Positions 13,670-61,344 of a DNA stretch of 64,000 bases are shown here, piece by piece. The position numbers and the translations under genes are program-made. Below the pieces are notes generated by a model that did not search any database, was not told the DNA's origin, and worked only from the letters and a program-made list of their open reading frames with translations. Origin of the DNA: Mustelus asterias (taxonomy: Eukaryota); assembly GCF_964213995.1 (NCBI RefSeq), contig NW_027590122.1:372001-436000 (forward strand). The letters are read 5' to 3'. Numbering within the stretch: the first letter of the stretch is position 1; each line of letters starts with the position of its first letter.

Positions 13670-13830
13670 AATGACGCCGTTAATTCCCAGGTGCCCCTGC
13701 GGTTGTGAACGTGCCCCAGTCATTCCACAGGAGCCTATTGCGCAGGCGCAGTGCTGTATCTGGAGCATGCGCAGTGTCACTTTGCTCGGAGTCCTGTGAA
13801 TGTGGGAGACGCTTTTTTCAGTGGGTGAGT
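13670..13830 (+). promoter_or_regulatory. Promoter/first exon of ZNF gene B
   Basis: CpG-rich; tandem NRF1-like tgcgcaggcgca and gcatgcgca; donor gtgagt at ~13825; inverted paralogue at 37570-37720. Confidence 0.65.
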
Positions 13831-14333
13831 CGGTGGGGCTGCGGGAGTAATGGAGTCGGGGGAGGAAGGGAGCTGTGGCTTCCAAACACCCGCTCTCGGC
13901 CGCACGGCCCGAATAGACCCTGCAGGTCCAGACATCTCTTCTCTCAGAGGATTTCTCTTCCACAGGGACCAGTGGAGGCTGAGGATCATTGAATATATTC
14001 CAGTTAGACAGATCTTTGACTGACAAGGGTGTCAAGAGTTATGGGGAACAGACAAGAAGATGGAGCAAAAGCTAAGATGTGAGGGGATTTCTTCACTCAA
14101 GATGTGGTAAAACTTTGGGATTCTCAACCACTGAGGACAGTGAAGCCTCAGTCATCAACTATTTTCAAGAGAGAGATTGGTTTCTAGATATTGAAGATAT
14201 CAAGGGATATGGCTTTAGTGTGGGGAGAATGATGCTGAGGTAGATGAATGAATTATCTAATTGAATAATTTAAAAGGCTCGATGGGCCAAATGGCCGACT
14301 GCAGCTCCTATTTGTTATGGTCTCTGTGTCCAG

Positions 14334-32089: not shown

Positions 32090-32550
32090 TTACTCACAGA
32101 TGTTGGAGACAGGAGGAAGTTTGAGTCTGTCTGAAGCTCAATCTTCATTCACGCAAAGCCGGTGCTCTGATCAGCTGGAGGACCAGTGTCCTTCCAGTCC
32201 TCCAACTCTTCCCATTGGTCAACACCTCAGGTCAGGGGGTGGGATCTGCCCTGCAATTCTCAGCATCCCCCTCCCTTGGACCTGCGCAGTCCCGGGCCGG
32301 GGGGAGGGGGAGATCACTGAGCGGCTTCTCGCTCTGGCCGGAGCCGTCAGCCGGTTGCCTGGAAACCTTGGCTCGATGTGGTGTAGGGGGAGGGGAACTA
32401 TGGGTGGGGGCGGGGCTCCCGGGTCCGCGCGCCCGGGCCTGAGCACTGGAACCCGGAGACGTCACCGCGGAGCAGAGTGATTCCTATTGGCTGATTCAAA
32501 GATGGCTCCGCTGTGACATCACAAAGGGGAAGTTGGCCAATGATGATGTA
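32090..32550 (-). promoter_or_regulatory. CpG-island promoter/first exon, probably of ZNF gene C
   Basis: CpG-rich; CCAAT boxes, GC box, CRE-like gacgtca/tgacatca, YY1-like aagatggc; minus-strand donor gtgagta at ~32097. Confidence 0.6.
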
Positions 32551-33861
32551 ATTTAAACAATGCCTGAGATCACTTCACTTCTTGGTCAGACCCCCTTTTC
32601 AGTCCAGTGCTACTTGGAGTTTACCGTCAATTCAACAACTATTGGGTTACAAGTCCCTCACAGTTCTGATCACAAATTTATGATAAAATAATTTAAACAA
32701 TACATGAGAACGCTTCTTAACTAACTACCGACCACTGTTTGTTGATTGGTCAGACCCCCTTTTTACAGATTCGGGAATCTCAGCCACTGAACACCTGCCG
32801 ATCCTGGAATAAGTTTAATTCTAACTCATTCTGAGTAAATATTCTCACCAGGTCCTCTGTTGGGGCCCTGCTATGCAGCTTTAATGGTCCGTGATTGCAG
32901 AAACTGAGCAGTAACAGGAATGTGGTCAAGATAGTCCAGTCCCATAATGCCTCACATTCAATCTGCAGTCCTTCAATTATAACAGAATATGTGGCTGTAT
33001 GTAGCTGCCTCGGCCGTGGTCAACCCCAACACTGCCTTCCTGAACTGCTACAATGCCTGAGGTGTAAGTACACCCACAGTGCTGTTAGGGAGGGATTTCC
33101 AGCTACACATTCCACACTTCCTCTAGACTGTGGGTGGATGCGAGATTGATACATTTCATTCAACTGCACTCAAGCTGAGTTATTCAAATCCCTTTATTGT
33201 ACGGGACAATATATTCACAATATCTTTAAAACAGAAATTAAACATTCCCATTTGATTTCAGGTATTAACATATTCTGTTAGTTTGTTCTTTATTGTCAAT
33301 GTCAGGCTGAGGTTGTTCCCCTTGGAGCAAAGGAGGTTCAGGGGAGATTTGATAGAGGTGGACAAGATTCTGACAGGTTTAGATAAGGTGGACAAAGAAA
33401 AGCTGTTCCCATTAGCTGATGGGACAAGGACGAGGGGGGTCACAGATTTATGGTTTCGGGTCAGAGTGGAAGGGGGGAATGTGAGGAAGAATATTTTGAT
33501 GCAGCGAATGGTAATGACCTGGAACTCGCTGCCTACGAGGGTGGAGGAAGTGGAGACAATAAACAATTACAAAGGAAATTGGATGAGCATTTGGGAGGTT
33601 TCAAACAGAAATGCTGACTAAATATCTCTGAACTTCCTCACACCCGGTCACTCGGTGATCTGTGTGAAATCTGAAACCAGGTATTCGCAACAAGACTCAA
33701 AGAGCATCAGCCCACTGGAGGCAAAGTCATGTGACCAGCCAGTCCAGCAGAAAGAAACCCCCCGACCCTCCCCATTGACCAACTGTGAGAATGAACAAAA
33801 TGCAATCCTGGATGTAATTGAGAGCAGAAACAATAACAGCAGAATCCAACCCCTGGAATCA

Positions 33862-36874: not shown

Positions 36875-37345
36875 TGTTGGAGTGAAACTAAGACTGCGAC
36901 CTTTGAAAGTGAATGCGTACGGGACTGGCTGTGCCCAGCACTTATCCTGTGGTTAACAAAGATCATTCTGTTGCTGACTAAATAACGAACTAACCTTTGA
37001 GCTACATCCTGTTATTGTATAAAAAATACGGAACAGACAAAAAAAACCAGACCGCGAGGTCCAGATGGTCAGCTTAGCTTAAGATAAAGGTGAACTGAAA
37101 CAATAAGTTGTGGGTTTCTGTTAACGGTTGTTTTTGAAGGAATGTGATTGGAGGTCAATTATTGCGAGGGGAGCCCAATTGGCTAAGTACAGGTAACCAC
37201 CCAAAGCTAATGACGAAGTAACCGCTAATGTCTGTATGATCAAAGTGTATAAAAGACGGCGAGCCGCCGCTCCAAATTGAGAAGGTGAAAGGCAGCATCC
37301 ATGAACCCGGCCTGTCAGTCAATGACTCAAACATTGTCTCTCCTG
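36875..37345 (+). mobile_element. Possible truncated LTR (U3 plus start of R)
   Basis: Starts tgttgg; CCAAT boxes then gtataaaaga at ~37247; no 3' end or TSD found. Confidence 0.4.
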
Positions 37346-37359
37346 GTCACCCAAATCCT

Positions 37360-37720
37360 GAAACCCCGCCCACTGGCCGCGCATGCGCTCTGCTCCCCGC
37401 TAAACAAAGATGGCAGCCGCGGCACCGCGCCTGATCCCGGATAAAATCCACGGAGCTGCAAAGCCGGGACCGGAAGGCTCTTATTCAGATCTTGCGGCCT
37501 ACAGCAGATGTTTATGAAGCCTCTGTTCCCTCCCCACCCCGAGTCCCGGCTTCATTCCTCCCGCCGTCCCACCGATTCTCACCCCTTGAAACAAGTGTCT
37601 CCCGGACTCGCGGGCTCCGAGCAAAGTGACACTGCGCATGCTCCAGATACAGCGCTGCGCCTGCGTACTGGGCTCCTGTGGAGTGAATAGGGCACTTTCA
37701 CACCCGCAGCGAATGCTGGG
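37360..37720 (-). promoter_or_regulatory. CpG promoter/first exon of ZNF gene D
   Basis: Reverse complement of the 13700-13830 module (tandem NRF1-like sites); donor gtgaga at ~37582; extra gcgcatgcgc and aagatggc sites. Confidence 0.65.
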
Positions 37721-40450: not shown

Positions 40451-40642
40451 AGGAATGGACTTGAGTCAGAGATAATAAAAAGTTTCAACAGATTGTTTGT
40501 TTAACATAAAAGCAGATTGATTTGACTTTCATCCAGGACATTCGTATTTATTTGTGGGCTCAAATTTATTTACATCAGAGGCGAATGACCACAATCAACA
40601 TGTTTGTGATTTGTGATAAACAGCAGAATCAAACTCCAGCAG

Positions 40643-41839
40643 TCACTTGTCAACTCGCTGATGGCTCAACAGGTTGTATTTCTGAGTGAATCCCTTTCCA
40701 CATTTGGAGCAGGTGAACGGCCTCTCCCCAGTGTGAATTCGCTGGTGGACAGTGAGTTGGGATGGTCGCCTGAACCCAGTCCCGCAGTGAGTGCACTTGA
40801 ACGGTCTCTCATCAGTGTGACCACGTTGATGAGACATCAGATCACTGCAGCTTTTATAGCATTTCCCGCAGTCTGGACATTTAAAAGGTCTCTCCTCACT
40901 GTGAACACGTTGATGGGACACTAGACTGCTGGAACTTTTACAGCACTTCCCGCAGTCTGGACATTTAAACGGTCTCTCATCGGTGTGAACTTGCTGATGT
41001 GCCATGAGGTGTGATGTCCGAGTGAATCCCTTCCCACAGTCAGTGCAAGTGAACGGCCGCTCCCCAGTGTGAATTCACTGGTGTTCAGTGAGTTGAGATG
41101 ACCACCTGAACCCAGTCCCGCAGTGAGAGCACCTGAACGGTCTCTCATCAGTGTGAACACGTTGATGGAACATTAGTTCTCTGGAACCTCTATAACACTT
41201 CTCGCAGTCTGGGCATTTAAATGGTCTCTCCTCAGTGTGAACACGTTGATGGAACATCACTTCCTTTAAACTTTTATAGCACTTGCCACATTCTGGACAT
41301 TTAAATGGTCTTTCCTCTGTGTGAACTCGCTGGTGTGTCTGCAGTGTAGATGACTGAGTGAATCCCTTCCCACACTCGGAGCAGGTGAATGGCCTCTCTC
41401 CCTTGTGAATCCGCTGGTGTCTCAGCAGGTTGAATGACTGAGTGAATCGCATCCCACATTCAGAGCAGGTGAATGGCCTCTCTCCAGTGTGAACCCGCTG
41501 GTGTGTCAGCAGGTTAGATGATTGAGTGAATCCCTTTCCACACTCGGAGCAGATAAATGGCCTCTCTCCAGTGTGAACTCGCTGGTGTGTCAGCAGGGTG
41601 GATGACTGAGTGAATCCTCTCCCACACTCAGAGCAGGTGAACAGCCTCTCCCCAGTGTTACTGTATTGGTGAATTTCCAGCTCAGACAGGTCTCTGAATC
41701 CTTCCCCACATTTCCACGGTTTCTCCTCAGTGTGACTGCACTTGTGTCTTGACAGGCCAGATGATTGTCTGAATCCTTGTCCACACACAGAACACGTGTA
41801 CAGTTTTGCCCCATTGTGAATGGTGCTTTTTCCTTCCAT
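40643..41839 (-). pseudogene. C2H2 zinc-finger gene E (14 finger units) with one in-frame TGA at 41075-41077; truncated gene or pseudogene
   Basis: MEGKSTIH start; ORFs 41075-41845 and 40643-41005 are in the same frame; HQ*IH (CGA>TGA); acceptor tttcacag at 41949. Confidence 0.75.
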
Positions 41840-42551
41840 GCTCAAGGTTCAGTGGTATTCAGGTAACGATAAGTTGGGCGACTCAGTCAGATCTGGATTT
41901 GATGTTTGGTTTGAGTTTCCTGACTGCAAATCATCCCCTTCTAAAACCCTGTGAAATTGATTTAAAACAGCGAAAAGGGAGTGAGAGAGATCCCACAAAA
42001 ACACAAAGGCAGGTTGTGAAATTGAGCCGAATGAATCTGGTCATTTGTGGGGCCGGCACCAGGAAAAAGTTACCATGGAAACTGCTGGATTGTCATAAAA
42101 CCTCAACTGGTTCACTAATGCCTTTCAGGGAAGGGAATCTGCCATCCAGTCTGGGACTACACAAGGCTCAGGCCTCAATGGATGGAGAGAGAGATGGGGG
42201 CAAAGGAGGGACTTTATGTATCTTACAACTCAACCAGTGGTTTGAACCTAAAAACCGTTAACCTGCCCACCGAGAAGGATCAGGGTAAGAGGTGTATGTG
42301 AACACCATCATCTCCAAATTCCCTCCAATTTTACACACCATCCTCCCTTGTCTGACATCCAGGACTGGATGAGCAGTAATTGCCTTTGTTAAATATTGGA
42401 AGATGAAGGCTGTCATCTTCAGCCCTGCAACAAATTCCACTTCCGAACCACTGACTCCATCTGTCCCCATTGCGACTGTCTGAGGCTGAACCGGAGTATT
42501 CACAACCTCAGTGACATGTTTCACTTCAAACTGAGCTTCTAAACATATCCT

Positions 42552-43348
42552 CATAGAATCTACAGCACGGAGACAGGCCCTTCGGCCCAAACTGGACAAT
42601 GCCCACCAAAAATGCCCATGTGAGCTAACTCCATTTGGCCCATATCCCTCTGAACCTTTCCTATCCATGTATCTGTCCAAATGCCTTTTAAATGTTGACA
42701 ATGTCCCTGTCTCAACCACTCCCTCCGGCAGCTCATTCCACATACGTACCACCCTCTGTGTAAAAAAGCTGCTCCTCAGGTTCCCATTAATTCTTTCCCC
42801 TCTTAACTTAAACTTATGCCCTCTAATTCTTAATTCCCCAACCCTGGGAAAAAGACTGAGTGCATTCAACCTATCCATGCCTCTCATGATCTTACACACC
42901 TCTATAAGATCACCCCTCAGTCTCCTACGCTCCAAAGAAAAAAGTCCTAACTCATCCAATCTCTCCCTATAACTTGAGTACTGGCAACATCCTTGTAAAT
43001 CTCTTCTGCACTCTCTCCAGTTGAATAACATCTTTCCAAATCAAGGTGACCAAAACTGAACACAATATTCCAGGTGCAGCCTCACCAAAGTCCTGTACAA
43101 CTGCAACATAACTTCCCAACTCCTATACTCAATGCCCTGACTGATAAAGGCCAGCATGTCAAAAGCCTTCTTCACTGCCCTATCTACACGTGACTCCACC
43201 TTAAGAGAACCGTGCACCTGGACTCCAAGGTCCCTCTGTTCCACGATACTCCCTGAGGTCCTACCATTCACTGTGAAAGTTCTACCTTGGTTTGACTTCC
43301 CATGATGCAACACCTCACACTGATCTGTATTTAACTCTATTTGCCACA
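42552..43348 (-). mobile_element. CR1 3' fragment
   Basis: LVRLHLEYCVQFWSP, FFTQRVVRMWNELP. Confidence 0.9.
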
Positions 43349-43429
43349 TCACCACCTACACTACCTATTTCCACCTCAGTGACATCGCCCCACTTTGTCC
43401 TGGCCTCAGCTCACCTGCTGCTGAAACCA

Positions 43430-45895
43430 GGTGGAGGAAGGAATTGCTAAGCAGATTATGGATATCTGTGGGGGCACAGGGTAGTTGTCATGGGGGACTT
43501 TAACTTTCCAAATATTGATTGGTACCTTTGTAGGTCGAACAGTTTGGATGGGGCAGTTTTTGTGCAGTGTGTGCAGGAGGGTTTCCTGACACAATATGTG
43601 GATAGGCCGACAAGAGGTGGGGCCACAGTAGATTTGGTACTGGGAAATGAACCGGGCCAAGTGTTAGATTTGGTTGTGGGAGAGCACTTTGGAGATAGTG
43701 ACCACAATTCGATGTCTTTTGTTATTGCAATGGAGAAGGATAGGGCCGTACGGCAGGGCAAGGTTTATAATTGGGGGAAGAGGTAATTATGATGCGATTA
43801 GGCAAGAATTAGGGGGCATAAGATGGGAACAGAAACTGTCAGGGAAAGGCACTAATGAAAAGTGGAATTTTTTCAAGGAACAAATACTGTGTGTCCTTGA
43901 TAGGTATGTCCCTGTCAGGCAGGGAGGAAATGGCCGAGTGAGGGAACCATGGTTCACAAAAGAGGTGGGAAGCTTATGAGGAAACAAGGTTCAGATGGCT
44001 CGATTGAGGGTTACAAGTTAGCAAGGAATGAGCTGAAAAAGGGGCTTAGGAGAGCTAGGAGGGGACATGAGAAGTCCTTGGCGGGTCGGATCAAGGAAAA
44101 CCCCAAGGCTTTTTACTCTTATGTGAGGAATAAACAAATGACCAGGGTGAGGTTAGGGCCGGTCAAGGACAGTAGTGGGAACTTGTGTATGGAGTCAGTA
44201 GAGATAGGAGAGGTGATGAATGAATACTTTTCTTCAGTGTTCACCAAGGAGAGGGGTCATGTTTTTGAGGAAGAGAAGGTGTTACAGGCGAATAGGCTGG
44301 AGGAAGTAGATGTTCGGCGGGAGGATGTACTAGCAGTTTTGAATAAACTGAAGGTCGATAAGTCTCCTGGGCCTGATGAAATATATCCTAGGATTCTTTG
44401 GGAGGCAAGGGATGAGATTGCAGAGCCTTTGGCTTTGATCTTTGGGTCCTCACTGTCCACGGGGATGGTGCCAGAGGACTGGAGAGTGGCGAGTGTTGTA
44501 CCTCTCTTTAAGAAAGGGAATAGAAATGACCCTGGTAATGATAGGCCGGTTAGTCTTACTTCGGTGGTTGGTAAGTTGATGGAAAAGGTCCTTAGGGATG
44601 GGATTTACGACCATTTAGAAAGATGCGGATTAATCCGGGATAGTCAGCACGGATTCGTGAAGGGCAAGTCGTGCCTCACAAATTTGATTGAATTTTTTGA
44701 GGAGGTAACTAAGTGTGTTGACGAAGGTAGGGCAGTTGATGTCAGAAACATGGATTTTAGTAAGGCGTTTGATAAGGTCCCCCATGGTCAGCTTATGATG
44801 AAAGTAAGGAGGTTGGGATAGAGGGAAAGTTGGCTGATTGGATAGGTAACTGGCTGTCTGATCGAAGACAGAGGGTGGTGGTGAATGGAAAATTTTCGGA
44901 TTGGAGGCAGGTTGCTAGCGGAGTGCCACAGGGATCAGTGCTTGGTCCTCTGCTATTTGTGATTTTTATTAATGACCGAGAGGAGGGGGCTGAAGGGTGG
45001 ATCAGTAAATTTGCTGATGACACCAAGATTGGTGGAGTAGTGGATGAGGTGGAGGGCTGTTATAGACTGTAAAGAGACATAGATAGGATGCAAAGCTGGG
45101 CTGAAAAATGGCAGATGGAGTTTAACCCTGATAAATGTGAGGTTTTTCATTTTGGTAGGACAAATTTAAGTGTGGATTACATGGTCAAAGGTAGGGTTCT
45201 GAAGACTGTGGAAGAACAGAGAGATCTTGGGGTCCATATCCACAGATCTCTGAAGGTTGCCACTCAAATGGATAGAGCTGTGAAGAAGGCCAATAGTGTG
45301 TTAGCTTTTATTAACAGGGGGTTGGAGTTTAAGAGCTGTGGGGTTATGCTGCAACTGTACAGGACCTTGGTGAGACCACATTTGGAATATTGTGTGCAGT
45401 TCTGGTCACCTCACAATAAGAAGGATGTGGAAGCGCTGGAAAGAGTGCAAAGGAGATTTACCAGGATGCTGCCTGGTTTGGAGGGTACGTCTTATGAGGA
45501 AAGGTTGAGGGAGCTAGGGCTGTTCTCTCTGGACCGGAGGAGGTTGGGGGGAGACTTAATAGAGGTTTATAAAATGATGAAGGGGATAGATAGAGTGAAC
45601 GTTCAAAGACTATTTCCTCGGGTGGATGGAGGTATGACAAGGGGGCACAACTATAGGGGTCATGGTGGGAGATATAGGAAGGATATCAGAGGTAGGTTCT
45701 TTACGCAGAGAGTGGTTGGGGTGTGGAATGGACTGCCTGCAGTGATAGTGGAGTCAGACACTTTAGGAACATTTAAGCGGTTATTGGATTGGCACATGGA
45801 GCACACCAGGATGATAGGGAGTGGGATAGCTTGATCTTGGTTTCAGATAAAGCTCAGCACAACATTGTGGGCCGAAGGGCCTGTTCTATGTTCGA
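43430..45895 (+). mobile_element. CR1 ORF2 (part of the endonuclease through RT and 3' UTR), frameshifted
   Basis: [36 protein letters not shown]. Confidence 0.95.
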
Positions 45896-45899
45896 TGTA

Positions 45900-46645
45900 T
45901 GACTTACTCAGTTAATGGTATGTGTTGGGGAGAGTTACAGAACAGAGAGATCTAAGGGTACATGTTCATAGCTCCTTGAAAGTGGAGTCACAGGTGGACA
46001 GAGTGGTGAAGAAGGCATTCGGCATGCTTGGTTTCATTGGTCAGAACATTGAATACAGGAGTTGGGACATCTTGTTGAAGTTGTACAAGACATTGGTAAG
46101 GCCACACTTGGAATACTATGTACAGTTCTGGTCACCCTATTATAGAAAGGATATTATTAAACTAGAAAGAGTGCAGAAGAGATTTACTAGGATGCTACCG
46201 GACTTGATGGTTTGAGTTGGAAGGAGAGGCTGGATAGACTGGGACTTTTTTCTCTTGGGCTGAGGAGGCTGAGGGTGATGTTATAGAGGCCTATAAAATA
46301 ATGAGGGGCATAGATCAGCTAGATAGTCAATATCTTTTCCCAAAGGTCGGGGAGTCTAAAACTAGGGGGCATAGGTTTAAGGTGAGACGGGAAGATAGAA
46401 AAATGTCCAAAGGGGCAATTGTTTCACACAGAGGGTGGTGAGTGTCTGGAACAAGCTGCCAGAGGTAGTAGTAGAGGGGGTACAGTTTTGTATTTTAAAA
46501 AGCATTTAGACAGTTACATGGGTAAAATGGGTAGAGAGGGATATGGGCGAAATGCGGACAATTGGGACTAGCTCAGGGGTTTTAAAAAAAGGATGGCATG
46601 GACAAGTTGGGCCGAAGGGTCTGTTTCCATGCTGTAAACCTCTAT
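45900..46645 (+). mobile_element. CR1 3' fragment
   Basis: LVRPHLEYYVQFWSPYY and 3' UTR. Confidence 0.9.
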
Positions 46646-47040
46646 GCCTGTTTGCCCTGGATCAAACTGACACCCAGGAACTCCCAAATGCTGCAGCTTG
46701 AATGTGTACTAATAAACTATTTCTTTTATCCAATGATAATTTATTTTTGTTTTTAAGTATTTTATTAACTTTACCACCTGTTGCTATACTATTGTGATCC
46801 TTAGGAACAGAATAAATCTTAGTTACTTCGCAGATACTCACCAAAAATCTGGCTTCTTCTCCTGTAGAAGAGTAAGATCACTTCCTAAAGGCTGAGAAAG
46901 TTAGAAAGCAAAAGGGCACCTCTTTCCCTTCCTTCCCTAACTCCCTTAATTACCCAACTCCCAGAACTCTATTCTAAGCTGCACTCAAGTGATGCCGCTT
47001 CAGAGCTGTTTCTGAGCTGTAGATTCAATACAATACTCAC

Positions 47041-48240
47041 TTGCAGACATGGACATCAAGGCCTGTATAGGTCTCCAGGCCATCATGCACACCATCATGA
47101 TAGGGAGGATGGAGATGTTGTTGCCAGCCATGTACATGATGTTGGGACATCTTGGGCAGCTGTTTCAATGGGCCCAAGGCGATGTCCCAGCAGGACTGAA
47201 AACAGAAAGCGAGCAGGGTATCAGTAAAGGGGGCCGGTTACGGGAGGCCATATGCTGATCTTATACCCAGGCCTGGAAGTTAGGATGATGATTAACCCTT
47301 TATCACACAGGGTGCTGTGGTTCACCAAGGTACTTCACCACCGTGAACAAACCAGGGGCGTTGTCAGCCACACACTAAAGACACATTCAAATCTAACTTA
47401 CTTTCTCGACCAGGATCCGGTCTGTTTCTTGGACGCAGATGTCCGGTAGCTGTTTGTCCGAATATGCGACTGGGCACATGGAGTCTCTCTGGCCACACTG
47501 TTGATCACGGCTCCTATGAGAAACAGAAAACACAAGTTGGTCACTCTTTCAAGACCTTCTTTAAAAAGGGAGTCTCTCTTTTGCGGACCCCAACGTGGTG
47601 GCAATAGTGCCAGCACAAACTAAAGCTTGGGCAAACCTCAGACACACACTGCCATTGCGTGTACCAAACTGCCAGGGGAATGGAGGGATGTAGAAGTAGA
47701 TTTAGTGTGAATTGATAATCAGGGTGCCAATCCGCTTGCCCTCCATTTAGGGACAAAGCGACAAATCACCAGATGTACCAAATTGTATCTTGAAAACAAA
47801 CATTGCAGGACATTGAGAGAGATCCAGTTCAGCACCCGGCCCTGGAAACGAGCAATCGTTCCTCCAACCACCACCGCAGTTGGCATCTGATCAGGTGGAG
47901 GGGCTGAAACCAAAAGGGCATCTCAGGGTCATGACCTGGGGAAAAGATGCCAAGTGGGGTCTGAGTGGTTTCTGGGGGATTTGAGGGGCTGCTTTGTGCT
48001 GAGGAGCTCGGTGAGGGGTAAAAGCGACGTGAAAAACCCGGGGTTGGGAAGTTTTGGGTTGGTGTCACATCCCCAGGTCGCCTTCGCTGGAGAGGCGGGC
48101 TGACCCGACTTGCCTCCTACTCGAGCCCCCGGCTCCCCGCGCGGCCTCCGCATCTGCTGCTGCTGTCGCTCAGGTTGCGCTCGAGGGTCCACTTGTGCCA
48201 GCGCGCGCTGTTGGCGAGCACCCGCCCCCCCTGCCGCCAT
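47041..48240 (-). pseudogene. EMC4: Unprocessed partial EMC4 (ER membrane complex subunit 4/TMEM85) pseudogene: exon 1 48240-48154, exon 2 47513-47402, exon 3 47195-47041
   Basis: Translates to MAAGG/VLANSARWHKWTLE.., [84 protein letters not shown], recognised as EMC4. Exons 2-3 have AG/GT ends with compatible phases. Frameshifts in exons 1 and 3; exon 1 donor reads AT; no later exons found. Confidence 0.9.
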
Positions 48241-48490
48241 GGCAACGCCTGCCACCGTTAACCGTCCCCCCCTTTCAAATCTGATTCCGATCCGGAGAAG
48301 AACCCGCGCGCTTCCGTCAACAAACCACACCCGCTGCAATGCGCATGTGCGATCTCAACCTCCTCAGCGTTCTGCGTACACTGCCCATTGCCCCGCCCCC
48401 CACGTCGCCGCCATCTTTGTTAAGGGCACATTGGTTCTTCATCTTCCGTCCAAACGGAGGACGTCTGCCCCACACAAAGATGGACATCAC
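48241..48490 (-). promoter_or_regulatory. CpG-island promoter/5' UTR of the EMC4 copy
   Basis: High CpG; NRF1-like tgcgcatgtgc, GC box, YY1 consensus cgccatcttt (~48408). Confidence 0.7.
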
Positions 48491-48912
48491 TTACTATCAG
48501 AGATATTTAAAATATTGCTTTTATCGCTTCAACCGTAACGCCGCATAAAGCGTCAATAAAACCGAAAGGACCTTGTCTCCTCATTCAGCAACCAAAATCA
48601 TAAGAATCCATTGTTAATCGGTTTCTCCACAGATGCCGCCAGGTCTGCTGAGTTTATCCAGTATTTTCAGTTTAAATTTCCCAATTCCAACATCCGCAGT
48701 ATTTTACTTTTATTTCCTTCCCATTCTACCTCCAGTGCAACTGGATATCATGAGTAAAGCTAGCACCAGGCTGATCCTTCCGGGTGGAACAGTGGTTAGC
48801 ATTGCTGCCTTACAGTGCTCGGGACCTGGGTTCAATTCTTGCCTTGGGTGACTGTCTGCACGGAGTCCACCCACTGTGGTTGACAGGGCTCTTGACTGTG
48901 TCCAACACAGTT

Positions 48913-50552: not shown

Positions 50553-52629
50553 ATAAGACCATAAGACATAGGAGCGGAAGTAAGGCCATTCGGCCCATCG
50601 AGTCCACTCCACCATTCAATCATGGTTGATTTCAACTCCATTTACCCGCTCTCTCCCCATAGCCCTTAATTCCTCGAGAAATCAAGAATCCATCAATTTC
50701 TGTCTTGAAGACGCTCAATGTCTCGGCCTCCACAGCCCTCTGTGGCAATGAATTCATGATGTGGAGATGCCGGCGTTGGACTGGGGTAAACACAGTAAGA
50801 AGTTTAACAACACCAGGTTAAAGTCCAACAGGTTTATTTGGTAGCAAAAGCCACACAAGCTTTCGAGGCTCTGAGCCCCTTCTTCAGGTGAGTGCACTCA
50901 CCTGAAGAAGGGGCTCAGAGCCTCGAAAGCTTGTGTGGCTTTTGCTACCAAATAAACCTGTTGGACTTTAACCTGGTGTTGTTAAACTTCTTGCAATGAA
51001 TTCCACAGACCTACCACTCTCTGGCTGAAGAAATGTCTCCTCATCTCTGTTCTAAAGTTACTCCCTTTTATTCTAAGGCTGTGCCCCCGCGTCCTAGTCT
51101 CCCCTGCTAATGGAAACAACTTCCCTACGTCCATCCTATCTAAGCCGTTCATTATCTTGTAAGTTTCTATTAGATCTCCCCTCAAACTCCTAAACTCCAA
51201 TGAATATAATCCCACGATCCTCAGACGTTCATCGTATGTCAGGCCTACCATTCCTGGGATCATCCGTGTGAATCTCCGCTGGACCCGCTCCAGTGCCAGT
51301 ATGTCCTTCCTGAGGTATGGGGCCCAGAATTGCTCACAGTACTCCAAATGGGGCCTAACCAGTGCTTTATAAACCCTCAGAAGTACATCCCTGCTTTTGT
51401 ATTCCAAGCCTCTTGAGATAAATGACAACATTACATTTGCTTTCTTAATTACGGACTCAACCTGCAAGTTTATCTTTAGAGAATCCTGGACTAGGACTCC
51501 CAAGTCCCTTTGCACTTTAGCATTATGAATTTTGTCACCGTTTAGAAAATAGTCCATGCCTCTATTCTTTTTTCCAAAGTGCAAGACCTCGCACTTGCCC
51601 ACGTTGAATTTCATCAGCCACTTCTTGGACCACTCTCCTAAGCTGTCTAAATCTTTCTGCAGCCTCCCCACCTCCTCAATACTACCTGCCCCTCCACCTA
51701 TCTTTGTATCATCGGCAAACTTGGCCAGAATGCCCCCAGTCCCGTCATCTAGATCGTTAATATATAAAGAGAACAGCTGTGGCCCCAACACTGAACCCTG
51801 CGGGACACCACTTGTCACCGGTTGCCATTCTGAGAAAGAACCTTTTATCCCAACTCTCTGCCTTCTGTCTGACAGCCAATCGTCAATCCATGTTAGTACC
51901 TTGCCTCGAATACCATGGGCCCTTATTTTACTCAGCAGTCTCCCGTGAGGCACCTTGTCAAAGGCCTTTTGGAAGTCAAGATAGATAACATCCATTGGCT
52001 CTCCTTGGTCTAACCTATTTGTTATCTCTTCAACGAACTCTAACAGGTTTGTCAGGCACGACCTCCCCTTACTAAATCCATGCTGACTTGTCCTAATCCG
52101 ACCCTGCACTTCCAAGAATTTAGAAATCTCATCCTTAACGATGGATTCTAGAATTTTGCCAACAACTGAGGTTAGGCTAATTGGCCTATAATTTTCCATC
52201 TTTTTTCTTGTTCCCTTCTTGAACAGTGGGGTTACAACAGCGATTTTCCAATCCTCTGGGACTTTCCCTGACTCCAGTGACTTTTGAAAGATCATAACTG
52301 ACGCCTCCACTATTTCTTCAGCTATCTCCTTTAGAACTCTAGGATGTAGCCCATCTGGGCCCGGAGATTTATCAATTTTCAGACCTTTTAGTTTCTCTAG
52401 CACTTTCTCCTTTGTGATGGCAACCATATTCAACTCTGCCCCCTGACTTTCCTGAATTGTTGGGATATTACTCATGTCTTCTACTGTGAAGACTGACGCA
52501 AAGTACTTATTAAGTTCCTCAGCTATTTTCTTGTCCCCCATCACTAGATTACCAGCGTCATTTTGGAGCGGCCCAATGTCTACTTTTGCCTCCCGTTTGT
52601 TTTTAATGTATTTAAAGAAACTTTTACTA
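50553..52629 (-). mobile_element. Young 5'-truncated CR1 with an open RT ORF, interrupted at 50756-50992
   Basis: ORF 50982-52544; (accataag)n tail; flanks rejoin to match the duplicate at ~53720. Confidence 0.95.
50756..50992. mobile_element. Penelope pLTR-derived insertion containing a perfect 196-bp palindrome (50797-50992) with a hammerhead on each strand
   Basis: 98-bp arms, no spacer, centre gagtg|cactc; 11-bp TSD gcaatgaattc (50745-50755, 50993-51003). Confidence 0.95.
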
Positions 52630-53164
52630 ATGATCTGCTCGTTATACTTAATCCCTCTTCATTCTGCATGTGAAACATTCTGGCGTCGAAATCCCGTTCA
52701 TCTATAGGAAAGTCCAGCAGATCTACGCTGAGTTTCGATTTACTCATCTGCCTGAGTGCTTTTTCCTATTTCTTTATTATGAAGAACAATTTTTAAAATA
52801 TGCTTCCGGGAAATGTGCGCCATTTCCTCCAGTTCAGTTACAGTTTCACCTGTGTCTGTCTTTATGAGCACACACTGCTATTACACATGTTTCAGATGGT
52901 GATTAGCTATGTTAGACTGCATTTATAAAACCATTCAATTCTGGTATGGACTGAACAAGTTGCTAATATGCGCACGGTGTCAAAGTACAAACATTTATTT
53001 CCTCACTGCGTCTTAAAATACAGCATTTCTGATTTTGCTGAGAGCATTTGTGGCCGAGGTCAGACCAAAGATAATATGGCTGCAACATCGAGATTCGGAT
53101 AATGTTCAGCAACAACTGAAACCATGCAAAACTTCCCTCATACTCACTGAATAATTTCAATAAA

Positions 53165-53237
53165 TGTTTCAGCCCGGTTTCGAACCGGGGACCTTTCCCG
53201 TGTGAGGCGAATGTGATAACCACTACACTACAGAAAC
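53165..53237 (-). tRNA. tRNA-Val(CAC), possibly non-functional
   Basis: 73 nt matching the vertebrate Val-CAC consensus with ~4 changes, including anticodon-stem and acceptor-stem mismatches. Confidence 0.8.
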
Positions 53238-54265
53238 AACTGACAGCATAGCGCCGCCAATTGGCCTGACCACAATGTTCAACTCCACTGTGTTGCTGCA
53301 GGTTCTATGGTTATACTGAGACCCCATGTCACTTAATACAAGACAAAAACCGTTTCTTTCAATCTGATTTCTCAACTCATCTTGAACTTCAACATTTATA
53401 AGCGGTCGTCCGGCAAATATCTAAGGAGCAATGATTTCTGCTCAATAATTAATGCATCATTCTCATCTTCCTTTGAATAATTTCAACCAGTTCTACCCAA
53501 TATTTGTTCGCTGTTCAATGTTTAATATTAATATATTTTTATTAATTACATATCTCCTCATTCTGAATGAAATAGCTCCGAAATAGGCAACATTGAGTTG
53601 CAAACATGACTGACCAACAAAAGGAATCGAGTCACTGGGTAATACACATGTCACGGTGCTTCATTGAGATTGACCACAATCAGCTTTTAAACAAAATCAA
53701 ATATCTTTAAAGGGAATAGATTTAAGAATGATTTGTTCGTTATACCTGATCCCTCTTTATTCTGTGTGTGAAATACTCAGGCGTCCAAATCCCGTTCAGC
53801 TGTAGGAAAGTCCAGTGGATCCGCACTGATTCTCGATTTCCTCAACTGTCTGAGTGGTTTTCCCTATTTGTTTCCTCTGAAGAACGATGTTAAAATAATG
53901 GTTCTGCGCAATGTGCGCCATTTCCTCGAGTTCAGTTACAGTTTCACTTGTCTCTGCCTTTTTAAGCACACAATACTATTAGACATGGTTCAGATGATGA
54001 TTCACTTTGTTAGTCTGCATCGACAAAGCCATTAAATTCTGTTGTGGACTGAATGAGTTGCTGATATGTCCACGGTGTCAAAACAGGAACATCTATTTCC
54101 GCTCATTGCGTCATAAAAATACAAGATTTCTGATTTTCCTGAAAGATTTTGAGGCCCGAGGTCAGAGCAAAGATAACATGGCTTTAATATCGAGTTTCGC
54201 ATAATGTTTAACAACAAATTTCAATCATGTAAACTTCCCTCACCTTAATGAACAAATTTTAACAA

Positions 54266-54338
54266 AATTTCGGCATGGTTTTGAACTAGGGACCTTTCCT
54301 GTGTGAAGTGAATGCAACCACCATTACACTACAGAAAC
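54266..54338 (-). pseudogene. tRNA-Val(CAC) pseudogene
   Basis: Degenerate duplicate of 53165-53237 with homologous flank. Confidence 0.8.
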
Positions 54339-54426
54339 TGCTGGCGCCCGTAGGACCCAATGGGACTCTCTTGAAATGTTGCAACACTCATTGGGACTGC
54401 TGTTGACATATTGATCGAAGAATGAT

Positions 54427-55850
54427 TTTGATTTGATTTGATTTATTATTGTCACATGTATTAACATACAGTGAAAAGTATTGTTTCTTGCGCTATACAG
54501 ACAAAACATACCGTTCATAGAGAAGGAAATGAGAGTTTACAGAATGCAGCGTTACAGTCATAGCTAGGGTGTAGAAAAAGATCAACTGAATGCAAGGTAA
54601 ATCGATTCAAAAGTCTGACAGCAGCAGGGAAGAAGCTATTCTTGAGTCGGTTGGTACGTGACCTCAGACTTTTGTATCTTTTTCCAGAAGGAAGAAGGTG
54701 AAGCAGAGAATGTCTGGAGTGCATGGGGTCCTTAATAATGCTGGCTGTTTTGCCCAGGCAGCGGGAAGTGTAGACAGAGTCAATGGATGGGAGGCTGGTT
54801 TGTGTGATAGATTGGGCACATTCATGACCTTTTATAGTTCCTTGCAGTCTTGGGTAGATCAGGAGCCATAGCAAGCTGTGATACAACCAGAAAGAGTGCT
54901 TTCTATGGTGCATCTGTACAAGTTGGTGAGAATCGTAGCTGACATGCCAAATTTCCTTAGTCTTCTGAGGAAGTAGAGGTGTTGGTGGGCTTTCTTAACT
55001 ATACTGTTGGCATGGGGCGGGGGGGCATGAGGGGGACCAGGACAGATAGTTGGTGATCTGGACACCTAAAAACTTGAAGCTCCCAACCTTTTCTATTTCG
55101 TCCCGTTGATGTAGACAGGGGTATGTTCTTCTCTATGCTTCCTGAAGTCGATGACAATCTCCTTCATTTTGTTGACATTGCGGGAGAGATTATTGTTGCT
55201 GCACCAGTTCAGCAGATTCTCTACCTCATTCCTGTACTCTGTCTCATCATTGTTTGAGATCCGACCCACTACGGTGGTGTCGTCAGCAAACGTGAAAATC
55301 GAATTGGAGGGGAATTTGGCCGCACAGTCATAGGTATATTAGGAGTATAGTAGGGGGGTGAGAACACAGCCTTGTGGGGCACCGGTGTTGAGGACGATCG
55401 TGGAGGAGGTGTTGTTGCCTATCCTTACAGATTGTGGTCTGTGAGTTAGGAAGTTTAGGATCCAGTCACAGAGGAGGTGCTGAGGCCCAGGCCACGGAGT
55501 TTGGAGATGTGTTTCGTGGGAATAATAGTTTTGAAGGCTGAGCTGTAGTCAATAAATATGAGTCTGTCTTTGTTATCTCGGTGATCCAGGGTTGAGTGCA
55601 AGGCCAGGGAAATGCCGTCTGCTGTGGACCTGTTGCGGCAACTGTAGTGGATCCAGGTAGTCCGGGAGGCTGGAATTGATTCGTGCCATGACAACCTTTC
55701 GAAGCGCTTCATAATGATGGATGTCAGAGCCACCGGCCGATAGTTATTAAGGCACGCTGCTTGATTTTTCTTAGGTACCGGGATGATGGTCATCTTCTTG
55801 AAGCAGATCGGGACCTCAGATTGTTGTAATGATTGAAAATGGTTGGCAAT
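54427..55850 (-). mobile_element. 5'-truncated Rex1/Babar-like LINE
   Basis: [19 protein letters not shown]; (gattt)n tail; same family as 4017-5816. Confidence 0.85.
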
Positions 55851-56984
55851 GGCAGAGAACAATAAGAGGCCTTTCGACCCACCATGCCTCTGCCAGTTAT
55901 TTTATGACGAGCTACCAAACTGACGTGTCGGTGCGAGCTTGGTGGGCCGAAGGGCCTGTTCCTGTTCTGCACTGTTCTTTCTTCTCATTTCAATTTCCTC
56001 CTCTCATTCCATGAAGCTGATTTTTCTCCCTTTCAAGTCATTGTCCAATCCCCATTGGGGAATGGGGGTGTTGGGGGGAGAGGGCTGGGTGTTTGGGGGG
56101 GGCCTGTTGGGGGGGGGGTGTTGGGGGGGGATGTTGGAGGGGGGTATTGGAGGGAGAGCACAATCTTTGTCTGAGCATAAAGACTTCCCAAAGCACTTCT
56201 GGTGACGACAGCAGGCTTTTAACAAGAGCCTTTCAGGTATGTGGGCATCGCTGGCTGGGCCGGTCTGTATTGCCCATCCCTAGTTGCGCTTCACAAACTT
56301 TCTGACAATCTTCTCAATTAGGTTTTTGCATTCAGTTGGTTATCTTGCCAAATGTTCCAGTGTCTAGAGCACAACAAACCTGCTCTTAGAGATAATTGAC
56401 TTAATAATCATTGCTCATCGGATTGTAATCATGTATTGAAATTAACTTTTGTACATTTTATGTTAAGAATTCTTAGTTTCAATCCGTGTCAAGTGTTCAT
56501 TGTGTTAACTTGAGTCACATTCTACCGAACATTTTCTAACTCTTCCCCAGTTGATATTTTTGCTTCATTACTGTAACATTGAGAGATGTTTAATCGGGCT
56601 GTTGTCATTATTAGGATTTGCCTCAGCAGGCGGGCATCAGTTTACACTGTCGACTGATATTTCAAACCAATGATGATTGGTTCCTTTGCCCCAAGTATTC
56701 TTTGAAACATCAGAACAAGAATACAACTAGTTCAAGGCTACCTGCAGCATTTTGTATTCTCAATGTTAGTGCCGAGTTCCCGGTGATCCGAAATAAACAG
56801 CAGCCAATTCTTCCCTCGCACAATGAATGTAATAATCAGGCGTAATCTGTGAACGATTGTAGATCGTGTCTGTGTGAATTGTGGTCGGGTTTGCGCTGAC
56901 AGCAAAGTATTGACGTGTCAGTGTATGACCCGCTGTGAGAAACACCTCTTGACAGACAGCAGCTGTGACCCAGAAACCTGCAGC

Positions 56985-57023
56985 AGTTTTTGTACGAATA
57001 TTTCACTCGTTCTCATCAATGTG
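56985..57023 (-). other. 23-RSS of TCR V segment 2
   Basis: cacattg-23 nt-acaaaaact. Confidence 0.9.
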
Positions 57024-58117
57024 AGACTTTGTGCACAGTAATAGACCGCGGTGTCAGACAGCCGCAGCATCGACATAGCTAATCGGTCCAACTTGTCTAA
57101 CTGCTGGGCTGAATCAGGAAATCGGGTGCCAGTGAAATCCGCCTTTAATTCAAAACCGCCGTTCTTGCCTCTTCGGACTGCAAACTCGGGCTGTCTGCCT
57201 GGGTATTGACAATACCAGAATAAATAATAAGCATCGTCGGTATAGGTGCAGATTAAAGTGACATCTTCTCCCTCTGTCTGTGTGAGTGAGGATTCCAGCT
57301 GAGTAACAGAATGTCCATCGTTCAGATCGAGAACACAAGGTTAACAAACAAAAGTCATTGATTAAAAGTTCACTTGAAGCGAGGGTGAAAAATCAGTGCA
57401 ACATAAAAGAAGGTATTAAATTCTAACACATTCACTCCAACTGATCTATGTCCCCTTTCACAATCCCTCAGAGAATCCTCCCTCCTGCCTCATCTCAAAT
57501 ACCTCTATCCCTTTCTACCTCAGCGGTTTCTCTAGTTTGCCCTCAAATGCATCGTTACTCCTCTCCTCAACAGTTCATTGTGTCGATGTGAGTCACTTCT
57601 ACAGAACTCTTTCAAAAAAAGTTTCTCTGTAATTCCCAGTTGATCTTTTTGTTTCACTTAGATTTATGGGACACAGATATGTAATTCTCCCCAAATGGAA
57701 TCATCCTCTCCCCGTCCAGCACACTAAATCTCTTTGATTTGATTTATTATTATTTAAATTGATTTGATCATCATTGTCCAGAAATCAGTCAGATTACCTG
57801 ATTGTCTTCTCGTCCAGAGAGAGAGAGTAATCATAATTTTTATAATGCTTTCTGATAGCTCTCATCTTCCAACCCTGGGACCATCTCTTTAAATCGCCTT
57901 TGCTGTGCGCTTTTAGAACCTGTTCTCCAAAAGACCAAAGCCACAAACAAAGATTCATTTGTGCTCTAAGGCAGGTCTAATACTTGTTTAACACGAAAGT
58001 CCTGCTTTTCAAACTTATTCCTCCATAAATTAAACTTCTTTTTACTCTTTTTCAAGTTTCAAACTTCTTACCAACAACGAATGTCACCCAGAAAACAGCG
58101 CGAACGGAGATCCGCAT
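57024..58117 (-). pseudogene. TCR alpha/delta-type V segment 2: leader 58117-58072, V exon 57327-57024; acceptor reads CG
   Basis: Leader MRISVRAVFWVTFVV|gtaag; open V exon DGHSVTQLESSLTQTEGEDVTLICTY..LFWYCQYPG..LRLSDTAVYYCAQS; CRE-like tgatgtca at ~58212. Confidence 0.85.
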
Positions 58118-58440
58118 CGGTGCTGCTGCTCCTGGATTCCAGGGATTTGTGTCTCCGAAAGTTGCAGAATATCGAACGAGATAAAGCTGAGGGCAGTGGA
58201 CGAGGCTAGTTTGATGTCACATCTACAGAATCAATGGGAGGAAGAGCTGAGATCACTGGATCGAGAATCAAGAGAATATTAGACAACACCATCTGCTTAT
58301 TGGCTTATTGCTGACAGAGTCTTCAGGTGGTACCCAATCATCCCCTCGGCTCTACCCTAAATAGAAATGACTGTCTTCTTGAAGCCGGGTCAAACCATTC
58401 GCGCAGGAGGAAACTTAATGGAGCTGTAAATACTCGCTGA

Positions 58441-58479
58441 GGTTTTTGTACGGGGTTTTAGCTTTAATCTAACGCTGTG
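58441..58479 (-). other. 23-RSS of TCR V segment 1
   Basis: cacagcg-23 nt-acaaaaacc (consensus nonamer). Confidence 0.95.
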
Positions 58480-59258
58480 CCTCACTGCACAGTAATAGAC
58501 CGGCCCGTCCTCCACACTGAGGGCGCTTATATTGAGGTAACCGTTCTGTTTAGACGCGTCAGAAGCCGCCAGATATCGTCCTGAAACTTCATCTTCCTTC
58601 ACTGTTAATGCTTTGGTAATAATCCATGTCGCGGGTTGTGTCGGTTTCTGCTGATACCATTGCATGCTGTACATATCCTTGTCTGTGTATTCACAACCCA
58701 ACTGCACTGAATCCCCTTCTGATGCGGTTATTGTCAGCGATGACTGTGCTACTGGATCTGCGCACAGTCCGCCTGTGAAGGTAGAGGAATGAAATATCGA
58801 GAGTTAATGTTTGTGTCTGCGATCGTTTCTGCAGCACCCGCCCCCCATCCCCTGCCCCATTCACCCCTCACATCGATATTTGTGATCGTTAATTATATTA
58901 CCATGTATGTGTGTTAATGTGTTTATCTGGCTTGATGTACGTTACCCAGTACTTATCGTGCAAGAGCACCGCCAGGAAGATCAGTGATGCGCGTCAATTG
59001 GACACGAGGCACGAAGCTTCGGTAAAAGAAGGCTTTTATTAACTAACAATGGAACTAACAGAACTTTAACACACTATCCCAGACTGAAGAGGTCCCGCCC
59101 GAGCAGGGGGTCTTATACCTCTCCCAGGAGGCGGAGCCCGACTGGGATGTGCCACAACAGTAACAACCACAGGTGTATCAATCCCACCCTAGCCCAACAA
59201 CAACATTAGAACAATCCCACAGTGGGAACCAACGATGGTTCACCACAATCAGAAACAT
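58480..59258 (-). pseudogene. TCR alpha/delta-type V segment 1: V exon 58772-58480 open; leader split by an LTR and donor reads ATAAGT
   Basis: GLCADPVAQSSLTITASEGDSVQLGCEY..MQWYQQKP..LNISALSVEDGPVYYCAVR; reconstructed leader MFLIFLAVLLH. Confidence 0.85.
58985..59247 (-). mobile_element. Short solo LTR (263 bp, Gypsy-like) inside the V leader exon
   Basis: TG..CA ends, 5-bp TSD atcag (58980-58984, 59248-59252), minus-strand TATAA and AATAAA. Confidence 0.85.
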
Positions 59259-59512
59259 ATCTGAGTGAATCTATCTCACTGAATGGGAACGGAGTGAGTC
59301 AGAGATTGAGAAGGAGAGAGGGAACCCGGGCTCTGTTCAAATGATTGCAGTGAGTGTGTTTGTGAGAGTGTCAGTGTGAGTTTCTGTGTCTGTGCTTGTG
59401 TGTGTTGGGGGGGGGGGGGGGGCGGTCGTGTCTATTGTGACCTCACAAGCCTACCATCCATACAGGTTTCGGTGATAATATCACGTGAGTTTCTGGCGCC
59501 CAGGCTAGAATG

Positions 59513-59530
59513 TGGCGCCCTCTGATGGCG
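59513..59530 (-). promoter_or_regulatory. Predicted CTCF site
   Basis: Reverse complement cgCCATCAGAGGGCGCca, one mismatch to the core consensus. Confidence 0.6.
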
Positions 59531-59579
59531 GGTTCTGCACGCTGGAATTTGGCTGTTGACTGGATTCCTCACCACAATA

Positions 59580-59650
59580 AGGAGTCTAACAATACCAGGT
59601 TAAAGTCCAACAGGTTTATTTGGTAGCAAACGCCACTAGCTTTCCACTAC
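59580..59650 (-). mobile_element. Penelope pLTR fragment with 16-bp TSD (1 mismatch)
   Basis: attcctcac(c/t)acaata at 59564-59579 and 59651-59666. Confidence 0.8.
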
Positions 59651-60237
59651 ATTCCTCACTACAATACATACTAAGATACACATGCTGCCGAAAAATCTCA
59701 ATTGCAGCTCTTCAGACACGGTCTTTGTGACTGTTGATATTTATTTGGGAAAATGATGGTAAATCTGTGAAAATCATGGCTGGAGTTCGCTGTTCAAATC
59801 CTGGGACGACAAAATCGGGAGAACGCCCATACTTTGGACAAATTGGTTACAAATCAGAATAGTGTCAGGGATTAACAGACTAATTTGGTTTCTTTTGCTT
59901 ATAACTAGGAAGGTACGAAAAGCAACTTAATTGACGTGTTCAGAATGTTGCCCTTTTCAGAGAGTAAATTGTAGTATTATAAGTCTATTTTAAAGTCACC
60001 TGTTCTTCAGTTTTAACTGCTGTGGACCGCGGCTGAGTAACGGAATCTCCATGAGCCACATCTGGAAAAGTTTGCCTTTTCCAGAAGAGGTAGATTCATG
60101 AAAAATGATTCTACACCCGAGGTGCAGTCTCAGATTTGAAAAAGGGAATAAATAAAAACGCGGAAGAATTTATCGTCGGAAATTGTCGAACACAAACATG
60201 AGTCTTGAAGATTCACAGGTGGGAGAAAGCTGCACTT

Positions 60238-60269
60238 TGTAGTTCCATATCTCTGCCACCAGAGGGCAG
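60238..60269 (+). promoter_or_regulatory. Predicted CTCF site with upstream motif
   Basis: tgtagttcc-N6-ctgCCACCAGAGGGCAG. Confidence 0.7.
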
Positions 60270-60716
60270 GACGATACCATGTTGCGTTCAGGCTCGGGGC
60301 GATTTGCAGTCTCCAGTAGTGGCCAGTAACATTATTGAGAAAATGTAATTAAAAGAGCAAATGTCGGAACAGAAATATTTTAGCATTGATAGCAAACTTA
60401 TATTGTTTCACGAGATATATTATGAGTTTTCAAAGTTGCTATTACTGTTGGTATACTGCAAATATTCTTGTTCGTTCAGCTTGGCGCTCGGCATTCTTTG
60501 TGCAGCTGAGCGGGTAATATGTGTACTTTTTACACAAAAGCTTCCAGTTGCAAACAGTCGAGTTCGCAATATTGGACGGATATTTTTCTGGAGTTTTAAG
60601 TCCACAAATGCTGATGTGGTGGGTTATTTCAACAATTTCGGCTTTCACCAGAGATGTCTGAACTGCTTTGGCGAAAGAGAAATGAGCTATATTTTGGTTA
60701 CGCTTGGTTTCGTGTA

Positions 60717-60807
60717 GGTTGGTTGGTCTAAGAGCATGATTATTGCTTCGGGTGTTTTAGTTGATGAGACATGCGAGAGATCCCGGGTTCAAATCCGAGA
60801 CGAGCCC
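60717..60807 (+). tRNA. Degenerate tRNA-Pro(CGG) with a 19-nt insertion between positions 37 and 38
   Basis: Removing 60753-60771 leaves 72 nt colinear with vertebrate tRNA-Pro (~10 substitutions); anticodon at 60749-60751. Confidence 0.75.
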
Positions 60808-61344
60808 TTTAATTGCCTCCTTTTGACCAAGTCAGGTATTGTGATTTGTTTCGGGTGCAAACGGCGGGATTGCTTTCTGGTGGCCAACTCCGAAAAAGGA
60901 TCATAGAGGCACAAAGTTTTACAGAACGGAAAGGGGCCCTTCGGCCCATCGTGTCCGGGTTGGCCATCTGACATCTGGACTGGAAACGTTAACTCTGTTT
61001 CTCGCTCCGCAGATACTGCCAGAACTACTGAAATAACCCAGCATTTCCTGTTTTTATTTCAGATTTACAGAGTTTGCAGTATGCTGCATTATATACAAAT
61101 ACATATATATATATAAAGCCTGACATAAGGCAGCATACTATATCTATCTCGATAGATCCCTATGGGAGGAAACCACAGGGAGAAAGTGCAACCTCCACAC
61201 AGACAGTGTGGCCAAGGCCGAGAATTGAACCTGGGACCCTGGCGCTGTGAGGCAGCAGTGCTAACCCAAAATGCATCTGCCCAGAAACAGCCAGGATCAG
61301 TTGATCAATTGGCAGGCAATGCATTTGTCAGTGTTGTACACCTG

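Follow-up and report, generated by a model that had tools for sequence, protein, structure and literature searches.

Truncated EMC4 paralogues as likely promoters and leader exons of zinc-finger genes in the shark Mustelus asterias

Promoter capture by segmental duplication is an already known class of event (PMC12871316, PMC3371713). In the NPEPPSP1-TBC1D3 case a single recent duplication placed one human paralogue under the promoter of another gene, whose 5' exons are spliced into this member of an amplified family to give two separate open reading frames (ORFs) and no fused protein (PMC12871316), and the LRRC37 promoters Cl3 and Cl8, from DND1 and BPTF, are likewise foreign promoters brought into a duplicated gene family by segmental duplication (PMC3371713). 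The FiNZ and KRAB zinc-finger (ZNF) genes are clustered and fast-expanding, with the finger array in one last exon and an in-frame effector domain in the upstream exon (PMC10547256); the main text of that paper has no match for shark, chondrichth or cartilaginous. We report the analysis of a 64,000-nucleotide stretch of the 3.68-Gb genome of the shark Mustelus asterias (contig NW_027590122.1, here C90:372001-436000; 'the window', with positions counted from its first letter), in which the promoter and first three exons of a truncated EMC4 paralogue lie upstream of the last exon of a C2H2 ZNF gene, ZNF E.

The shark units share with NPEPPSP1-TBC1D3 the duplicated promoter, the spliced 5' exons and the two separate ORFs, but the hybrid has itself been amplified to dozens, has several partners and derives from an old whole-gene paralogue of which intact copies survive (compare PMC12871316). 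Promoter activity was tested for LRRC37 (PMC3371713); the shark case involves three exons with an upstream ORF and tandem C2H2 ZNF recipients. These recipients resemble the FiNZ and KRAB genes in their clustering and expansion and in their single-exon arrays but, unlike them (PMC10547256), receive no effector domain from the leader. What is unusual is that the hybrid was amplified through a ZNF family, that it has several ZNF partners and that an array of intact EMC4 paralogues survives.

To our knowledge, the expression of newly duplicated ZNF genes is poorly understood outside tetrapods and zebrafish. EMC4, a housekeeping gene, is known as a single-copy gene in vertebrates; here the intact parent, with the same exon structure and sequence, is accompanied by about 105 copies, and 17 of the 27 that keep exon 4 are intact. 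A hundredfold expansion of a normally conserved subunit of the endoplasmic reticulum (ER) membrane complex is odd in itself. The precursor (the full-length paralogue), the breakpoints, several products and spliced transcripts coexist in one genome, and promoter capture can therefore be traced step by step. The link escapes gene annotation because the ZNF protein does not include the leader exons. In the searches run we found no paper on EMC4-ZNF promoter capture by title or opening of the abstract; the gene-family tables of shark genome papers could list the expansion. The main text of PMC8455134 has no match for EMC4.

Hybrid transcripts of the EMC4-ZNF units

We consider the window locus to be one damaged copy within an amplified family whose ZNF genes likely owe their promoter and leader exons to a truncated EMC4 paralogue, and give this reading a probability of about 0.78. 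An earlier note on this DNA had described three EMC4 exons disabled by two frameshifts, an AT donor on exon 1, and a retained CpG island, YY1-like and NRF1-like sites and splice sites of exons 2 and 3; all of this is borne out (Table 1), with 4 nt more in exon 1 than in a 99%-identical twin on C87 and 1 nt more in exon 3 than in the parent's. Homology of exons and introns identifies the unit as an EMC4 (PF06417) derivative: the PF06417 profile matches exon 3 (E 2e-7), parent exon queries match the window exons at 82-85% identity, and exons with flanking introns are 75% identical to the intact parent. There is no intact five-exon EMC4 ORF at this copy. Exons 4 and 5 are absent, as the note had it: exon 4 has no match anywhere in the window, and an exon-5 probe matched exon-4-bearing copies only.

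The EMC4-derived exons and island lie 5.1 kb upstream of the ZNF exon. The acceptor at 41949 stands as predicted, and the recipient's own promoter is absent from the window intron: no CpG island lies between the acceptor and exon 3, and the cores of seven native ZNF promoter regions have no match there beyond LINE (long interspersed nuclear element) tails at their edges. The truncation of ZNF E by a TGA after 7 of its 12 fingers had escaped the earlier note.

Contigs from four runs, three guessed to be RNA and one unlabelled, were aligned to 40600-48600 at 88% likeness, and the following holds among the 15 of 127 joints listed. Both predicted junctions, 47402>41948 and 47041>41948, occur in contigs of probable RNA runs. 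The exon 2-ZNF junction (41947/47401) is found in X1 (two contigs, depth 169), X2 and X3, from two studies, with an overlap of 115 letters on each side in X2 and X3 and of 23 letters in X1, while the exon 3-ZNF junction (41947/47040) is found in X1 and X15, where the short side counts 27 and 29 letters, and the exon 1-2 junction (47513/48157) in X1. At the predicted places, the ZNF joints skip sequence bounded by CT..AC, which reads GT..AG on the minus strand. For the family, and in runs guessed to be RNA, donor exons are spliced to a recipient ZNF exon.

On the ZNF side, the exon 2-ZNF contigs of X1 and X2 carry alleles that match sister copies such as L065, L066, L078 and L079, not the window; in these sisters 11-12 fingers are intact and the exon-1 donor is GT. 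Their junction alleles match the group of linked ZNFs that keep at least 10 fingers (the L065 type). Changes private to the window copy are a 7-G run and a T at 48231-48220, an A at 48153 and ZNF alleles at 41854-41873. One ZNF piece that agrees with the window letter for letter does the same with five other copies. The deepest exon 1-3 contig in X17 has the parent's allele at 47107, and exon depth there is thus largely the parent's. The DNA control for the junctions covers 15 of 193 joints, a listing dominated by run X16 and with some joints uncounted, and even X15's known joint is missing from it.

A 20-nt stretch of intron 3 (46842-46861, minus strand) lies between AG and GTGAGT in the window and in 54 of 101 copies in all, and is a possible micro-exon or extended exon-3 donor; the alignment of one X1 contig ends beside it, at 46841.

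The amplified family and the state of its promoters

A genome search with the PF06417 profile gave 137 matches from 146 candidates, 106 parsed as exon 3 and about 30 of exon-4 type; of 107 promoter-type candidates 40 were scored. The expected intact parent was found, together with partial copies beside ZNF genes. The parent (C71:20307253 to about 20335930), its fifth exon located by alignment, encodes a 183-aa protein (P0068) that groups with the EMC4 proteins of Callorhinchus and of other sharks and rays, and no ZNF array lies in the 130 kb examined around it. The other copies, about 105, belong to an old paralogue.

For the family analysis we used 101 copies, the window and 100 matches with 10 kb around each. 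Class A (27 copies) keeps exon 4, with exon 5 in 26 and an open frame with canonical splice sites in 17; these copies sit among ZNF genes (for example, L032:655-6530), and in extensions of at least 20 kb a convergent ZNF lies 5-8 kb behind the position of exon 4 in 12 of 12 class A copies and one exon-4-less relative. Classes B and C, 45 copies truncated in intron 3, are linked to two ZNF subfamilies: class B (29, the window included) has a ZNF-E-type exon about 5.1 kb, and up to 6.6 kb, behind exon 3, and class C (16) has, at 3.7 kb, another subfamily that is 74.5% identical to ZNF E. Class D (14) adjoins a ZNF on the opposite strand, and class E (15) is mixed, with L075, L080 and L111 facing further ZNF types. 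The EMC4-ZNF units thus number dozens, with at least two ZNF partners and probably four. Seen from the recipients, 32 of 37 close ZNF-E-type acceptors adjoin an EMC4 exon-3 match, and linked ZNFs have at least 7 fingers in 24 of 45 cases and at least 10 in 16. With the PF00096 profile 150 of 43,451 candidates were scored, hence no count of ZNF genes is given.

Three further copies lie beyond the 101, one of class A and two of class B. One of the latter, L159 (G000:C87:277800-287000), is the twin of the window unit, 99% identical over 9.2 kb, with a GT donor and an in-frame exon 1; its differences from the window cluster upstream of 47300, which suggests recombination or conversion of the promoter end. 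L162, L163 and L164 consist of promoter and exon 1, with no exons 2-3 within the 10 kb examined, and L025 (G000:C25:12757287-12757424) on another large contig is an isolated exon-3 fragment that has no ZNF within 10 kb.

The window island (48001-48500; GC 0.62, observed/expected CpG 0.93) has counterparts in the full-length copies. Rates of change were computed among distinct copies, and CpG transitions in the island run at the non-CpG rate (0.029 against 0.023 in class B, 0.023 against 0.024 in A, 0.017 against 0.016 in C), whereas in the bodies of exons 2-3 they reach 0.080-0.141, a decay 4-7 times faster; from this we infer the pattern that a germline-unmethylated island would leave. The NRF1-like site is present in 81 of 89 copies and the AAGATGGCG core in 37 of 89; the idea that the NRF1-like site had decayed in the window was rejected, the window form being the family norm. 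The motif names are those we take to fit. The window island aligns to the parent only at the core of the NRF1-like site and over some 50 nt of 5' untranslated region, and no YY1 site was found within 960 bp upstream of the parent, a stretch occupied by a SINE (short interspersed nuclear element). Exon 2 keeps its AG and GTAAGT in 99 of 99 copies, and the ZNF acceptor its CAG in 45 of 45 linked copies. Dozens of truncated copies stand at the front of ZNF genes, with spliced hybrids seen for sister copies, and likely serve as borrowed promoters.

Several observations weigh against this reading. No contig is assigned to the window copy, whose exon-1 donor is dead and whose ZNF is truncated; the runs are guessed to be RNA, none being so on record; the X2 and X3 contigs have a depth of 3-5 and unclear provenance; the exon 3-ZNF joints and the X1 exon 2-ZNF joint have fewer than 31 letters on the short side; and the contigs carry no mapped start site, leaving room for a ZNF-proximal start. 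The canonical exon-1 GT donor is kept in only 72 of 94 copies, and the exon-3 AG in 76 of 101. Class C lacks the canonical donor throughout; a second GT about 33 nt behind it is present in most copies, in the window and in 15 of 16 of class C. In the window 48120, 48109 and 48104 are candidate substitute donors. A ZNF donor from before the capture was not found, the five leaderless ZNF-E-type candidates nesting within class B. The copy number may be inflated by haplotypic scaffolds (81 copies are distinct among the 99 in the tree region, and 12 non-parent copies lie on C71).

The strongest competitor, which we regard as unlikely, is passive hitchhiking: segmental duplication of ZNFs would have taken pieces of EMC4 with it, and the chimeric splicing would be read-through from a promoter left behind, yielding no useful ZNF product. 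It would accommodate the many broken ZNFs (in 21 of 45 linked cases no ATG is recognised or the fingers number fewer than 7), the class D copies, whose orientation means that the spread is partly passive, the near-neutral variant counts of truncated copies (ratio of non-synonymous to synonymous changes, N/S, 0.58-0.79, uncalibrated) and the five ZNF-E-type copies with no leader within 10 kb; moreover, an upstream ATG in strong context should suppress ZNF translation. It does not account for an island spared CpG decay, for exon-2 splice sites whose invariance has a chance of 0.001-0.0035 (8 sites) or 0.03-0.06 (AG/GT core), both post hoc, for junction alleles that match intact 12-finger sisters, or for a ZNF-side intron of the window in which no other promoter was found. 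We regard promoter capture as well supported for the family and as a candidate for the window copy, which may be a decaying member, given its dead exon-1 donor and shortened finger array. The chimeric unit proposed in the earlier note accordingly holds for the family, with both junctions, an island free of methylation-type decay and no fusion protein, but not as a one-off event.

We would go further only tentatively: it is conceivable, though on balance doubtful, that the EMC4 paralogue is a core duplicon of ground-shark ZNF clusters, travelling as a whole gene and repeatedly cut in intron 3, so that one unmethylated housekeeping promoter reached several ZNF subfamilies. In such a setting the upstream ORF, together with an exon 3 that is optional, would throttle ZNF output, and about 17 intact, diverged EMC4 genes could supply variant ER membrane complex subunits.

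Origin of the units and their coding output

Between the parent and five class A copies, exons 2-4 have a synonymous divergence (dS) of 0.36-0.43 and a dN/dS of 0.18-0.24, and the paralogue protein is 80% identical to the parent's; the changes cluster at the start of exon 4. Proteins labelled Mustelus asterias match exon 4 of one paralogue at 96-100% identity. In Scyliorhinus torazame the same paralogue is annotated as 12 distinct proteins, some of them isoforms; between the two species the orthologues are 98% and the paralogues 84% identical. We therefore infer that the duplicate predates the split of these lineages and has kept its frame while evolving faster. The copies are found among ZNF clusters, most of them either on the chromosome-size contig that carries the parent or on smaller scaffolds. 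In the family tree an insertion after exon 3 probably accounts for the basal position of L067, L068 and L072, and the long branches of the parent and L111 leave the root unsure.

The window is 88-90% identical to class A from 48517 to 45901; the likeness ends inside a LINE that in full-length copies lies shortly before exon 4 and that in the window is joined to the tail of a second LINE. The LINE-LINE junction is identical in the six class B copies compared, and class C keeps intron pieces missing from B and breaks nearer exon 4. Promoter and 5' exons were thus duplicated as genomic DNA, with introns retained. The best fit is that a full-length paralogue was truncated and that two or more joining events, of unfixed order, came after. 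The five ZNF-E-type copies with no leader within 10 kb upstream look like secondary losses, because they fall within class B in two separate positions (support 87/93 and 100/97). The partial duplication that the earlier note had proposed as the source gives way to a whole five-exon paralogue, truncated later: a single copying of the parent's exons 1-3 would explain why the window on its own has only these exons, but is highly improbable in view of the 88-90% identity of promoter and intron 3 to full-length paralogues, against 75% for exons and introns to the parent, and of a class C with a different breakpoint and partner.

Promoter capture in this family began with duplication of the whole EMC4 gene, giving the paralogue common to Scyliorhinus torazame, which was amplified along with neighbouring ZNFs. 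Intron-3 rearrangements, probably later, deleted exons 4-5 and brought a ZNF last exon downstream, at the LINE-LINE junction in class B and, with the other ZNF subfamily, just before exon 4 in class C. In sister copies exon 1 is spliced to 2, and exon 2 or 3 to the ZNF. This would yield a bicistronic mRNA whose upstream ORF ends before the ZNF ATG, with the ZNF made by leaky scanning or reinitiation and no fused protein; the window copy is probably weak or decaying.

The product is likely a two-ORF mRNA, by analogy with NPEPPSP1-TBC1D3 (PMC12871316). The description of the EMC4 exons as non-coding needs to be qualified: no fused frame exists, but the EMC4 ATG is kept in all 43 ZNF-linked copies that have exon 1, and opens an upstream ORF. 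Exons 1 and 2 are open in 40 of 43, and in 41 of 43 their frame is 65-93 codons long, its stop lying within the first 18-90 nt of the ZNF exon and so short of the ZNF ATG at +109. Selection on this ORF was considered and set aside, no constraint being seen (N/S 0.6-0.8 and 2 stops among about 80 variants, a crude count of distinct codons uncalibrated for CpG decay). No in-frame N-terminal effector exon of KRAB or FiNZ type was found in the linked ZNFs. A membrane-tethered EMC4-ZNF fusion protein is the least credible alternative: exon 3 ends in phase 1, compatible with the phase-1 acceptor in the finger frame, and the exon 3-ZNF junction exists, but with or without exon 3 none of the 45 linked copies is open from the EMC4 ATG into a finger and all 45 have a stop in the linker frame, which refutes it for these copies, though brief existence in an ancestor is conceivable.

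Further features of the window

The window contains five tandem C2H2 ZNF arrays, LINEs and two V-set segments; the features of the EMC4-ZNF unit are given in Table 1.

Table 1. Features of the EMC4-ZNF unit, in window coordinates
Feature	Position	Strand	Remarks
EMC4-derived exon 1, coding part from ATG	48240 to 48154	-	+4 nt frameshift; donor AT instead of GT
EMC4-derived exon 2	47513-47402	-	splice sites intact, AG/GTAAGT
EMC4-derived exon 3	47195-47041	-	splice sites intact, AG/GTGAGT; +1 frameshift
CpG-island promoter of EMC4-like paralogue	48000..48517	-	common to full-length copies
YY1-like AAGATGGCGGC	48417-48407	-	present in window island
GC box	48400-48391	-	in window island
NRF1-like GCACATGCGCA	48350-48340	-	present in window island
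ETS-like	48317-48311	-	in window island
Intron 3 of EMC4-like paralogue	45901..47040	-	internal deletion of ~1.8 kb at 46649; ends inside LINE
Breakpoint	45890..45901	.	paralogue's LINE joined to tail of second LINE
ZNF-side intron	41950..45890	-	mostly LINE fragments; no CpG island
ZNF acceptor AG	41950-41949	-	
ZNF exon, 5' part	41840..41948	-	phase-1 linker frame closed by TGA 41851-41849
ZNF E ORF	41075..41839	-	254 aa, own ATG at 41839, 7 C2H2 fingers, premature TGA 41077-41075
Five further fingers behind premature stop	40643..41074	-	ZNF E thus 7 of 12 fingers
AATAAA	40570-40565	-	behind ZNF E fingers

Native ZNF promoter-like regions lie at 6300-6700, 13700-13900, 32300-32600 and 37300-37700; two of them are alike at 78%, others match islands near other ZNF loci, and none matches the EMC4 island. 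At 686-2724 (plus strand) are long frameshifted retroelement-like ORFs, the first with no Pfam match, unlike the CR1-type LINEs elsewhere. The V-set segments (PF07686; 56918-57340 and 58390-58803, minus strand) lie 9 kb from the EMC4-ZNF unit; one has a 23-spacer recombination signal sequence at 58479, and they resemble T-cell receptor V genes. The CpG observed/expected ratio is high over 52500-61000.

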